A stretch of 64,000 nucleotides of DNA from Escherichia coli (GTDB taxonomy: Bacteria; Pseudomonadota; Gammaproteobacteria; Enterobacterales; Enterobacteriaceae), in NCBI RefSeq assembly GCF_003334385.1, contig NZ_QOWN01000004.1. The stretch is one strand, 5' to 3'. Each line of letters begins with the position of its first letter. Position 1 is the first letter of the stretch. A program made the position numbers and the translations under genes. The notes beneath the pieces were generated by a model, which was given only the letters and a program-made list of their open reading frames with translations, ran no database searches and had not been told where the DNA came from. This document shows positions 43,667-47,898 of this stretch, piece by piece.

Positions 43667-43751
43667 GCCGAAGTGGCGAAATCGGTAGACGCAGTTGATT
43701 CAAAATCAACCGTAGAAATACGTGCCGGTTCGAGTCCGGCCTTCGGCACCA
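43667..43751 (+). tRNA. leuX: tRNA-Leu (anticodon CAA)
   Basis: 85-nt sequence gccgaagtggcgaaatcggtagac...ggttcgagtccggccttcggcacca with anticodon loop ttgattCAAaatcaa and encoded CCA. Confidence 0.95.
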
Positions 43752-43764
43752 TCGGAGCATCAAT

Positions 43765-43788
43765 AGACGTCAACGGACGTCTTTTTTT
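43765..43788 (+). terminator. Intrinsic terminator after leuX
   Basis: Hairpin agacgtc-aacg-gacgtct followed by a T run. Confidence 0.75.
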
Positions 43789-43937
43789 GTGCCTGAAATC
43801 CAGTATTTACCCATCATTCCCGCTATATTAACTCTCTCAAGGTCAACCGACTTCAACGTACATCTACCAACAGATGTTGGTACAGATGATGGTATTTCCG
43901 GTTCGATAATGCTTGTACCAACAGGGAGGGGATAAGC

Positions 43938-45182
43938 ATGGCTCTAACAGATATCAAAGTCAGAACAGCTAAGCCAACAGATAAGCAATACAAGTTAACT
44001 GATGGCAGTGGTATGCATCTTCTTGTCCACCCTAATGGTTCTAAGTACTGGCGTTTGCAGTACCGTTTTGACGGCAAGCAAAAGATGCTGGCTTTAGGTG
44101 TTTATCCTGACGTGTCGCTTGCCGATGCACGGACTCGCCGTGACGACGCTCGTAATTTGTTGGCAAACAACATCGACCCGGGAGACAAAAAGAAAAGTGA
44201 TAAAATTGAGCAAGAAGAAGCCCGCACTTTTGAACAACTCGCAGTTGAGTGGCATGCAACAAATAAAAAGTGGTCGGAAGAACATAGCAGGCGAGTACTG
44301 AAAAGCCTGGAGGATAATCTGTTTCCAGCTATTGGTAAGCGGAATATTGCGGATCTCAAAACCCGAGACCTGCTAGCCCCAATCAAAGCCGTTGAACTGT
44401 CAGGACGGCTTGAGGTTGCTTCACGATTACAACAGCGAACCACGGCAATTATGCGCTATGCCGTGCAGAGTGGTTTACTGGACTATAACCCCGCGCAGGA
44501 GATGGTTGGCGCTGTTGCTTCAAGTAACAGACAGCATCGACCTGCTCTTCAGTTGAAGCGAATCCCAGAACTATTACGGCGCATAGATAGTTATACCGGT
44601 AGACCTCTTACTAGACTTGCCGTCGAACTCACGCTCCTGGTATTCATTCGTTCAAGTGAACTACGCTTTGCTCGTTGGTCTGAGATCGATTTCGAAACAT
44701 CAATGTGGACAATACCTGCAGAGCGCGAAGCTATTGACGGAGTAAAGCATTCACAGCGTGGTTCAAAAATGCGTACGCCTCATCTGGTGCCGCTTTCTCA
44801 TCAAGCTTTAGCAATTCTTAAAGATGTTTACAAACTTAGTGGTGATCGCGATTTTGTTTTCATCGGCGATCATGACCATCGCAAACCGATGAGTGAAAAC
44901 ACGGTGAACAAGGCGCTGCGCGTTATGGGTTATGACACGAAGGTAGAGGTTTGTGGGCACGGTTTCAGGACAATGGCCTGTAGTTCATTGATCGAGTCTG
45001 GATTGTGGTCGAGGGATGCAGTGGAAAGGCAGATGAGCCATATGGAACGTAACTCAGTACGCGCAGCTTACATTCATAAGGCCGAACATCTTGATGAACG
45101 GCGACTGATGCTGCAGTGGTGGGCTGATTTTTTGGATGCGAATAGGGAAAGCGAAGTTAGCCCTTATGACTTTGGCAAATAG
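43938..45182 (+). CDS. P4-type tyrosine integrase
   Basis: 414-aa ORF with C-terminal tyrosine-recombinase motifs (HGFRTMACS, RAAYIHK); good RBS gggagggg; adjacent to the tRNA 3' end. Confidence 0.9.
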   Translation: MALTDIKVRTAKPTDKQYKLTDGSGMHLLVHPNGSKYWRLQYRFDGKQKMLALGVYPDVSLADARTRRDDARNLLANNIDPGDKKKSDKIEQEEARTFEQLAVEWHATNKKWSEEHSRRVLKSLEDNLFPAIGKRNIADLKTRDLLAPIKAVELSGRLEVASRLQQRTTAIMRYAVQSGLLDYNPAQEMVGAVASSNRQHRPALQLKRIPELLRRIDSYTGRPLTRLAVELTLLVFIRSSELRFARWSEIDFETSMWTIPAEREAIDGVKHSQRGSKMRTPHLVPLSHQALAILKDVYKLSGDRDFVFIGDHDHRKPMSENTVNKALRVMGYDTKVEVCGHGFRTMACSSLIESGLWSRDAVERQMSHMERNSVRAAYIHKAEHLDERRLMLQWWADFLDANRESEVSPYDFGK

Positions 45183-45617: not shown

Positions 45618-46574
45618 GTGAGCAACATCAACTTAATAACCACATGTACAAACGGCAAACACTACGGTAGTAGGGATATATTGAGTCTGAGTCAATTTTC
45701 ATCAGGCCGAACCCCTTCAAATGTGCTCGTGAATTCTTGGTGCAATGCTCTGAATGAAGCTATTTCTACATCTGCAACTATATGTGCAGAGGATCTTTAT
45801 AAAGGTGGGCACTGGGCGACGGCTAAAGCCATCTTAGATGATTATCCTATTGATTTATGGATTCTTTCTGCTGGTTTAGGACTCCTTCACCACAAAGACA
45901 ATGTTGTACCTTATAAAGCGACCTTTGCTGTTGGATATGACGAATCAATACCATTATATTCTCAAGAATATGTAGGGAAAAGTTTTCATAGAACATGGTG
46001 GAAAGAAATAACCAATAGATCTATTTTTAAATCTAAGCATCCTACATCTATTGTAGAATTAATGAAAAAAAGAAAAAGAGACTATTATATTATCTGTGGT
46101 TCTCCAGATTATATTAATGCAATTGAACTAGATATCATTAATGGTCTTGAGTATCTAGTTGATGCAAAAAAACAACTGCTTATTATAACTTCCAAAAAAA
46201 TCAATGGTAGGTTAACTACATACCTTTTCAAAACCAACCAAAATATGGCTCAGTGGCTGAGATGCAATATGCTCATGCTTAATATCAGTGTGGCAAAATA
46301 CATTGTGAAGGAATTTACGTCAAAACAACTCAATGATTTAAATGAGTTATCTCAAAAGTTAATAGAAGAACTCAAGGAGTTACCTGAGCGTGAAGTGAAA
46401 AAAGGAATTCGTCGTAGTCCGGAGGAAGTTAAGTCTTTCATTTTAAAGATTATGGAGAAAAATCCTGGTATCAGTGCTACACACGCGTTGCGTGAATTTC
46501 GTGACTCGGGAAATTCATTTGAGGAAAAACGTTTTCGGACTGAGTTTATGGCCCTGAGAGAGGCTAAACCTTAA
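45618..46574 (+). CDS. Hypothetical protein (318 aa), first gene of the putative modification module; possibly DpdC-like by context only
   Basis: AT-rich ORF with GTG start and G-rich RBS; no motif I can assign; sits directly upstream of the TGT-like gene. Confidence 0.5.
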   Translation: MSNINLITTCTNGKHYGSRDILSLSQFSSGRTPSNVLVNSWCNALNEAISTSATICAEDLYKGGHWATAKAILDDYPIDLWILSAGLGLLHHKDNVVPYKATFAVGYDESIPLYSQEYVGKSFHRTWWKEITNRSIFKSKHPTSIVELMKKRKRDYYIICGSPDYINAIELDIINGLEYLVDAKKQLLIITSKKINGRLTTYLFKTNQNMAQWLRCNMLMLNISVAKYIVKEFTSKQLNDLNELSQKLIEELKELPEREVKKGIRRSPEEVKSFILKIMEKNPGISATHALREFRDSGNSFEEKRFRTEFMALREAKP

Positions 46575-46626
46575 TGCTACTTGCCTGGGTTTCATGGTAG
46601 AATCCCCCGTTTTTTGAGGCTTTGCA

Positions 46627-47898
46627 GTGGCGTCACAGGAGAGTAAGTTGTCGAAGCTAAAGTATTTTTTCCCTGATAGTCAGGATTTTATCGATCCCAG
46701 TTTCGACTTCTTCCGCGAAACGCGTAACGAACATCGCGTGCGTCAACGTGACGATCAGTATCCGCATGAGGTTTTTCCTCATCCTTACGATGGTATGCTG
46801 GTTTCTAAAGCTGTAGTTGATGGTCTTGGCGGCGGCGAGAGCAAATATACTCGTGCCCAGCGTTTGCGTTACTTCCGTAATGGAATGAAGCACTTTTTCC
46901 GTCTGCCGGAAAATATGGAAACTATGGGTGATTGCGGAGCCTTCACATATGTTAATCAGGACGTCCCGCCATACCGTGTGGAAGAGGTGATTGAGTTTTA
47001 CGAAACTTCCCGCTTTAACCATGGCGTTTCTCTCGATCATATCGTTTTTGGCTATGAAAAACCTGGTGAGGTATTCAGTGGCGAAGTGTTGGCTGAATGT
47101 CGCCGACGCCAGGATATCACTCTGACCTTGGCTCAAGAGTTTTTAAACAAGTCTCAAAAGTCCTGTTTCACTCCCTTTGGCGTTGCACATGGATGGAGCA
47201 AAACCTCCTATCGTCAGTCTGTAGAGGCCCTGCTGGCCATGGGATACAGAAATATCACCATGGGGGGGATGGTGCCGTTGAAAACGGCGCAGATCCTTGA
47301 GACTCTCGAAGAGATTAAACCGCTGCTGAAAAGTGATACACGTATTCACTTGCTTGGCATTGCCCGTCCAGAGAGTTTCGCCGACTTTATCAAGTTTGGT
47401 GTGACCAGTATTGACTCGACAACACCGCTGCAGCAAGCCTTCAAAGATCGGAAAAACAACTATCATACGCCTGATGGCCCGGCCTATACCGCTGTGCGTG
47501 TCCCTCAGTTTGATGCGAATCCAAGTTTGAGTCGCAAAATAAAATCTGGCGTGATTGATCAGGATATTGCACGACATCTAGAAAAGGATGCCATGGCTGC
47601 CCTGTTTGAATATGATAAAGGGGCTTTGTCACTTGAGAAGACTCTTGATGCAGTCCTGGCATATGAACGCCTCCATTCGGGTGAAAAAGAGGCCGATAAA
47701 ATCCGTGCGGATTATGAACGTACGCTAGGAGAACGTCCTTGGAACCAATGCCAGTGCAATATTTGCCAGGCCATCGGTATCAACGTCATCATTTTCCGCG
47801 GAGCAGAACGTAACCGTCGCCGCGGTTTCCATAATATTCAGGTGTTGTACAACCGTTTACAGCACACATTGTCATTACGCTCAGAGGAACTGTCATGA
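46627..47898 (+). CDS. dpdA: tRNA-guanine-transglycosylase-like protein (DpdA-like DNA 7-deazaguanine transglycosylase candidate)
   Basis: 423-aa ORF, GTG start with gagg RBS; C-terminal zinc motif CQCNIC followed 22 residues later by His (TGT-type CxCxxC...H); DCGAF and DSTTP segments. Confidence 0.65.
   Translation: MASQESKLSKLKYFFPDSQDFIDPSFDFFRETRNEHRVRQRDDQYPHEVFPHPYDGMLVSKAVVDGLGGGESKYTRAQRLRYFRNGMKHFFRLPENMETMGDCGAFTYVNQDVPPYRVEEVIEFYETSRFNHGVSLDHIVFGYEKPGEVFSGEVLAECRRRQDITLTLAQEFLNKSQKSCFTPFGVAHGWSKTSYRQSVEALLAMGYRNITMGGMVPLKTAQILETLEEIKPLLKSDTRIHLLGIARPESFADFIKFGVTSIDSTTPLQQAFKDRKNNYHTPDGPAYTAVRVPQFDANPSLSRKIKSGVIDQDIARHLEKDAMAALFEYDKGALSLEKTLDAVLAYERLHSGEKEADKIRADYERTLGERPWNQCQCNICQAIGINVIIFRGAERNRRRGFHNIQVLYNRLQHTLSLRSEELS

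Follow-up and report, generated by a model that had tools for sequence, protein, structure and literature searches.

The 64-kb stretch of Escherichia coli DNA analysed here (the window) carries a cluster of short repeats between a tRNA gene and an integrase gene, which raises the question of whether these repeats serve the integrase in recombination, control expression of its gene, or do neither. The tRNA-Leu(CAA) gene leuX (43667–43751, + strand; ARAGORN, Rfam tRNA) is the island's integration target, and its 3′ end in the window is identical to the 20-bp core of phage P4 attP, GAGTCCGGCCTTCGGCACCA, placing the attL core (crossover) region at 43732–43751 (+) from the P4 record annotation and the sequence. 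The window holds one copy of this core, and another lies beyond the window, at the far end of the island. A rho-independent terminator found by terminator scan (43765–43789, +; hairpin at 43765–43782 with a 7-bp stem, and a T7 run) separates leuX transcription from that of the integrase gene, int, which lies on the same strand after an intergenic region of 186 nt. The int open reading frame (43938–45182, +; ORF list and Pfam) is intact, is preceded by a ribosome-binding site GGAGG read from the sequence 8 nt 5′ of the ATG (43925–43929, +), and encodes a P4-family tyrosine integrase of 414 amino acids that is 59% identical to phage P4 Int, with the Pfam domains Arm-DNA-bind_3 (PF13356, E = 9.6e-28; residues 3–87), Phage_int_M (98–192) and Phage_integrase (208–383). 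It forms the head of a dpd defence island. Strain GE3 (NZ_CP012376.1) is 100% identical to the window over the 341 bases compared, and its island is an 89-kb mosaic with many IS elements. According to the GE3 annotation, dpd is a 7-deazaguanine DNA modification/restriction system; the cluster behind the integrase (45618–64000, running past the window) includes dpdA, dpdB and dpdE–J, with dpdK, dpdD and queD beyond the window.

The initial annotation had described a near-palindrome and a further copy of the motif upstream of int. The near-palindrome TACCAACA-GA-TGTTGGTA is found exactly at 43865–43882 (8 + 2 + 8) with perfectly complementary arms, and GTACCAACAG is found exactly at 43915–43924, one base 5′ of GGAGG and 14 nt 5′ of the int ATG. 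The coordinates were therefore correct, but the description missed a fourth copy, and the conserved unit is a tandem pair plus an inverted copy rather than the palindrome alone. Overall, the 8-mer TGTTGGTA is present in four copies within 60 bp (43865–43923), arranged as inverted, two tandem and inverted, with the TGATGGTA copy bearing one mismatch. As putative arm-type sites these are P′0, an extra copy of TGTTGGTA on the − strand, identified from the sequence and a repeat search, that stands head-to-head with P3 (43865–43872); P3 itself, the first member of a 12-bp tandem pair (43875–43882, +), whose position is homologous to the “attP arm sequence repeat” of phage P4; the site P4, TGATGGTA, the second member (43887–43894, +; repeat search); and P5, an inverted TGTTGGTA on the − strand one base 5′ of the ribosome-binding site (43916–43923; repeat search). 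The 12-bp tandem units at P3 and P4 read ACAGATGTTGGT / ACAGATGATGGT, and the 10-mers at 43875–43884 and 43914–43923 are perfect inverted copies of each other. Following the core, the window thus reads 123 nt, tandem pair, 21 nt, inverted copy, 14 nt, ATG. The 8-mer, in its direct and inverted copies, is unrelated in sequence to the core at 43732–43751; TACCAACAG occurs twice in the 64 kb, both times at this cluster. An unbiased scan found this to be the sole place in the window where a non-trivial 8-mer or its reverse complement occurs at least three times within 60 nt; a motif cluster at 53.7 kb was set aside as chance, since it lies within a coding region. Because 7% of first-order Markov simulations of 64 kb yield at least one comparable 8-mer cluster, the cluster taken from the window by itself is suggestive, and it is the comparative evidence that turns it from suggestive to decisive.

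The attP records of phage P4 (X51522, X05947) contain repeats annotated as “attP arm sequence repeat”, which are reportedly attributable to Pierson & Kahn 1987. Phage P4 and the window share the leuX target, the 20-bp core, the order of sites and a near-identical spacing, with the tandem pair about 113–123 nt past the core. In phage P4 this tandem 12-bp pair (TTGGGGGCATAA / TTGGGGGCATCT) lies 113 nt 3′ of the core and an inverted arm copy overlaps the int ATG, compared with the inverted copy P5 at the int ribosome-binding site in the window; a further tandem pair lies 55 nt 5′ of the core in phage P4 and 57 nt 5′ of the core in the GE3 island. The arm 8-mer itself differs, being TGGGGGCA in phage P4 and TGTTGGTA in the window, and phage P4 is without the P′0 copy that the window has. 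The annotated Pint −10 of phage P4 (CATAAT) sits in the tandem-pair junction, whereas no equivalent promoter is visible in the window. The two elements also differ in kind, phage P4 being an 11.6-kb satellite phage and the window element an island of 34–89 kb with no phage genes seen in the part examined.

In order to extend this comparison, the leuX–int regions of six other E. coli genomes were aligned, and the upstream regions of 31 viral-contig relatives and one Salmonella houtenae locus were compared, with a tandem pair at 12 bp plus a downstream inverted copy as the automatic search criterion; the phage records H35 and H36, in which int lies at the record end and points outward, were left out of the arm comparison. 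The layout proved constant in nearly all lineages (30 or more relatives) as P3, 4 nt, site P4, 21–23 nt, inverted P5, 14–28 nt and ATG, and the geometry is kept across lineages with 36–89% Int identity. The exceptions are the three most distant relatives, with shorter gaps in L038 and L039 and no such repeats in L041. The 8-mer filling this layout is lineage-specific: TGTTGGTA / TGATGGTA in the window type and L034, L035 and L040; TGATGGTA in S. houtenae; TG(C/T)GGGTA, including TGCGGGTA, in the O121 type and also in L020 and L032; TGAGTATA in the pheV type and L021, L033 and L037; TGCTGGTA in the asn-tRNA type; and TGGGGGCA in phage P4. In at least six lineages the three sites have all changed their 8-mer in concert, and within a locus they agree with one another at 7–8 of 8 positions in most loci and at 6–8 in all except L041. 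When viral contigs were scanned with a pattern for the P′ layout only, free of any int sequence, 91 distinct matches came up, 39 of which have the N-terminus of a P4-family Int no more than 40 nt downstream. Conservation of the motif at islands with related integrases, on which the initial annotation had made its reading depend, was thus observed in the relatives, and that reading stands.

Further evidence comes from the integrases themselves. Compared with the window Int, those of L034 and L035 are 74–76% identical over the N-terminal 90 amino acids and 35–38% over the rest, and carry the window motif (for L040, whose gene is cut short, the N-terminus alone was compared). Conversely, L014 and L031 show 72% identity over the N-terminal 90 amino acids and 80–81% over the rest with the motif TGCGGGTA, and L021 shows 58% and 81%, respectively, with the motif TGAGTATA. 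The 8-mer tracks the predicted N-terminal arm-binding domain of Int rather than its catalytic domain. As the P′ sites adjoin the N-terminal coding region, linkage alone could yield this co-variation; this objection is removed for three elements because the arm motif is also found at the far end, away from int.

That far end was located in GE3, where TGTTGGTAtctgTGTTGGTA is followed after 57 nt by the core repeat at record position 4806486, beyond the window at a distance of 89.4 kb from leuX. No second leuX core and no second tandem motif turned up in the window or in the 50 kb of GE3 that follow it, and attR emerged after extension to 89 kb; a search of K-12 (DH1) for a second leuX core or tandem motif found none. 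Within 156.6 kb around leuX the exact 8-mer TGTTGGTA is found seven times, and the two island ends account for five of these; in GE3, arm sites persist at attL as well as at attR. In strain 600468 the same dpd island is intact at 34 kb, with attL at one end and attR at the other; it has an Int that is 97% identical, an identical P′ arm and, 34 kb away at the island end, TGTTGGTAtctgCGTTGGTA, 57 nt and the leuX core repeat. On one viral contig, a sister element with the 8-mer TGAGTATA has TGAGTATAcaagTGAGTATA in its P′ arm and the same pair about 58 nt 5′ of the next core. This arrangement was then sought in one genome per species for 100,044 species with the pattern TGGTANNNNTGNTGGTA (tandem TGNTGGTA), 40–70 nt and GAGTCCGGCC, yielding 42 matches against about 1 expected by our own estimate. 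About 38 of the 42 have the P-arm layout (34 in Enterobacterales, 4 in other Proteobacteria), sharing a tandem TG(T/A)TGGTA, 55–57 AT-rich nt that often contain an IHF-like AATCAAAGGATTA, and a truncated tRNA core, mostly leuX CGAGTCCGGCCTTCGCACCA. These scan loci stopped short of the int of the owning element, and the linkage of P to P′ was made through the E. coli genomes; with two P-arm subtypes as BLAST queries against E. coli, matches were obtained in 721 and 56 genomes, respectively. A viral-contig scan for “TGGTA + gap + core” returned 3 matches and was uninformative. As a separate observation, the GE3 attR (L092 6487–6600; record 4806486–4806600) consists of the core followed by TTCGCACC three times, and past it lies a decayed P′ arm of the O121 type (TGTGGATA.., a GGTTCGAT-like block and TGTACCCACA) without an integrase gene, which looks like the remnant of a second element formerly in tandem.

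An independent parallel is provided by ICEMlSymR7A of Mesorhizobium. Its IntS attP is described as having five P/arm motifs of consensus TGKTGGTATC, all required for integration (Verdonk et al. 2019, as cited in PMC11963761); the citing paper terms them “putative IntS-binding” sites, and their support comes from deletion analysis rather than footprinting. The window sites TGTTGGTACA and TGATGGTATT and the far-end sites TGTTGGTATC and TGTTGGTATA fit this consensus, and the predicted arm-type consensus of the window element, TGWTGGTA or in extended form TGTTGGTAYM, is essentially the same motif. Each element has five canonical sites, the window having P′0 as a sixth, and in both int is directly downstream of attL at a tRNA gene. 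ICEMlSymR7A differs in its alphaproteobacterial host, its phe-tRNA target and its nature as a 500-kb conjugative element, and the likeness is one of motif and site number.

The motifs are therefore very probably, judging from sequence comparison, arm-type binding sites of the island's own P4-family integrase and make up the P′ arm of attL. The initial annotation had offered integrase arm-type sites as one candidate, and this is borne out by the Arm-DNA-bind_3 domain in Int, the geometry shared with phage P4 attP, the concerted change of the 8-mer and its tracking of the N-terminal domain, the far-end pair and the IntS consensus; multiple direct and inverted copies, at both attL and attR, are likewise what is expected of arm sites. 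We infer that this Int physically binds them. Arm sites of P4-family integrases are a feature of known kind, and no new mechanism is involved. The canonical set would comprise five sites, namely the P1/P2 tandem 57 nt 5′ of the far-end core, the P3/P4 tandem 123 nt 3′ of the core and the inverted P5 at the ribosome-binding site, to which the lineage-specific P′0, head-to-head with P3, would add a sixth and so create the near-palindrome. The N-terminal Arm-DNA-bind_3 domain of Int is predicted to bind these arm sites. In the excised circle, Int protomers would bridge them to core-type sites in the leuX 3′ end, forming an intasome for integration with P1/P2 on one arm and P′0, P3, P4 and P5 on the other; excision would use the same intasome together with an AlpA-type excisionase. 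In the integrated state, the sites would cover the int translation start region and the presumed promoter, such that Int binding would keep int expression low.

The status of P′0 is less uniform than that of the other sites. It is missing from the O121, pheV, asn and P4 types, in which the homologous segment reads ..CATCAACTT.. (containing CATCAAC). Every window-type locus keeps P′0 unchanged, even though the 2-nt spacer between it and P3 varies (GA/TA/CA). Inverted copies consistent with the local motif and abutting P3 occur in more distant lineages as TACCAACTgaTGATGGTA in L042, TACCATCAttCGTTGGTA in L101, TACCAACAaaTGATGGTA in L162 and TACCAGCGtatCGATGGTA in L173, which suggests that P′0 is a real site in a sub-clade. 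The near-palindrome would then be two head-to-head arm sites and not a separate kind of element, an assignment held with moderate confidence as far as P′0 is concerned. Because it is absent from most lineages and overlaps the segment homologous to ..CATCAAC.., P′0 may also have been gained recently or lack a function. Members of the family differ in how many P′ sites they have (three to four or more): in the viral contigs L106, L121, L195 and L209, of the TGTTGGTA type, a second inverted copy lies after the site P4, and the tandem pair is thus followed by two inverted copies. One of these in L121 abuts the site P4 as TGTTGGTA-G-TACCAACA, and in several of the four the last inverted copy directly abuts the ATG.

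One alternative, although a very unlikely one, takes the motifs not for integrase arm sites but for the operator of some other protein, for instance an excisionase of the AlpA/Vis type or a host regulator. Excisionases of this type do bind between core and int (RdfS, PMC11963761; TorI in KplE1, PMC2951348), and the GE3 island contains an AlpA-family gene (record 4790375–4790581), about 73 kb downstream. The motif, however, follows the N-terminal domain of Int and matches the IntS arm consensus, and its copies are spread over the two arms and point either way, whereas an excisionase typically has phased direct repeats confined to a single arm. A better excisionase candidate also lies adjacent: directly 5′ of the arm sites, three TCAAC-like units with a phasing of about 10 bp (GTCAAC, TTCAAC, ATCTAC; 43842–43867, +) are kept as ..TCAAC.. 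in other lineages. These units are a candidate site for an AlpA/Vis-type excisionase (recombination directionality factor, RDF) by analogy with ICEMlSymR7A, in which the 40-bp region bound by RdfS, the excisionase/RDF, lies immediately 5′ of P3 (PMC11963761).

A second alternative places the function of the inverted copies in RNA, with a P′0/P3 hairpin or a P3:P5 stem controlling int translation or mRNA stability. P3 and P5 are indeed perfect 10-nt inverted copies, and concerted change across lineages would resemble compensatory covariation; phage P4 int is also said to be regulated post-transcriptionally (Piazzolla et al. 2006). The predicted fold of 43860–43945 nevertheless does not stand out from shuffled controls (z = −1.1, with 26 of 200 shuffles doing as well), Rfam gives no match, the int leader has no T-run, and a stem would leave the site P4, the far-end P1/P2 and the link to the N-terminal domain unexplained, making this reading barely tenable. 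That the repeats are chance occurrences or decaying remnants, functionless now in GE3, is equally hard to credit. In its favour, 7% of random sequences of 64 kb contain a comparable 8-mer cluster, IS elements riddle the 89-kb mosaic of the GE3 island, and K-12 retains the sites despite an early stop codon in intB. Against it, the sites are invariant among window-type loci while a spacer base varies (G/T/C), their geometry is conserved across lineages with 36–89% Int identity, Int is intact and arm sites are retained at both attL and attR.

Given that the motifs are most probably integrase arm sites, their position at the start of int bears on the other suggestion of the initial annotation, an autoregulatory operator. 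We consider it somewhat probable, by analogy, that Int negatively autoregulates int through these sites. The operator reading is plausible because of the parallels with phage P4, KplE1 IntS, PAI I536 Int and ICEMlSymR7A IntS. For int genes downstream of a co-oriented tRNA gene, promoters have been described inside attL and autorepressed through P′ sites, and Leu loci are listed among those predicted to be autoregulated (PMC2951348). The window shows the co-oriented arrangement of such negatively autoregulated int promoters (Panis et al. 2010), and its intergenic region of 186 nt has room for attL. PAI I536 Int represses its own promoter, and the same report cites work in which P4 int is negatively regulated by Int and Vis (PMC7286903); IntS likewise negatively regulates PintS in ICEMlSymR7A (PMC11963761). 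As in the window, tRNA gene and int are co-oriented, with the int promoter region (presumed in the window) in attL, in both KplE1 (argW; IntS/TorI) and PAI I536 (selC; Int); in these two, Int acts on P′ arm sites close to the −10 to repress its own promoter (PMC2951348, PMC7286903). These two elements differ from the window in their integrases and arm motifs (TAAA-containing in KplE1), and only in them is the promoter mapped. A consensus scan for promoters detected nothing sigma-70-like on the int (+) strand. The best −10-like hexamer read from the sequence is GATAAT (43905–43910, +), a tentative weak int promoter for which manual inspection gave only a weak TACAGA-18-GATAAT with no good −35, and other lineages do not keep it as a −10. 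If GATAAT does act as a −10, our guess is that transcription would start within P5, with the −35 region falling in P3/P4; any overlap between operator and promoter is to that extent conjectural.

The arm-site reading would define a complete attachment site, five canonical sites and one extra, for the integrase mobilising the leuX dpd defence island, and would extend to the leuX islands related to it in E. coli, the K-12 KpLE2 intB region among them. It would also indicate the DNA required for testing or engineering excision and integration of these leuX islands. Current understanding of site-specific recombination is unchanged, and the cross-lineage comparison offers material on how this integrase family reads arm sites, with constant geometry, a lineage-specific 8-mer and tracking of the N-terminal domain. 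Beyond this, a doubtful though conceivable joint proposal is that Arm-DNA-bind_3 is a modular recognition code and that the P′0/P3 pair is a dedicated autorepression operator. Were the first part true, N-terminal modules and 8-mers would be swapped as units between integrases with unrelated catalytic domains or tRNA targets, for which L034, L035 and L040 against the window would be an example, and arm specificity would be predictable from a few N-terminal residues, e.g., GMHL..LQYRF / GMVL..LRYRF / GMSL..FRFRF. Were the second part true, the head-to-head P′0/P3 would be an autorepression operator and not a recombination site.

Several further elements accompany the arm sites. Between the sites P4 and P5, the repeat search identified a conserved block CCGGTTCGAT (43898–43907, +), the first 9 nt of which, CCGGTTCGA, duplicate positions 43725–43733 of the leuX T-arm exactly. 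Within the 21–23-nt gap, the GGTTCGAT block is present in nearly all lineages whatever the arm motif; readings of it as a −10 element or as a T-arm copy co-varying with the target tRNA do not fit all lineages and were rejected. A similar GTTCGA block is found 25–30 nt upstream of P1 in many P arms. Inspection by eye for the IHF consensus gave only one-mismatch candidates in the P′ arm (AATCCAGTATTTA, 43796–43808) and better ones in P arms (AATCAAAGGATTA). Phage P4 has a sixth arm repeat annotated inside int, and in the window a segment at 43971–43985 in the int 5′ coding region, AAGCCAACAGATAAG, matches the motif at only 6 of 8 positions; its repetition of CCAACAGAT from P′0 is probably coincidence, and it is not conserved in FP4.

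Finally, two observations were made on neighbouring leuX loci. K-12 DH1 (L006 1778–1845) has a 1-nt deletion just 5′ of the intB ATG and a TAG stop at about codon 19; intB is annotated from a downstream start, and its four arm-site copies are still identical to those of functional relatives. L011–L013, L021, L027, L033 and L037 carry P4-like satellites (P arm TGGGGGCAcaaaAGGGGGCA) between leuX and resident integrases of the window type or related types, forming tandem arrays in which a P arm lies about 200 nt upstream of int. The hybrid cores of these arrays read CTTCGCACCA, with one G fewer than the CTTCGGCACCA of the tRNA.
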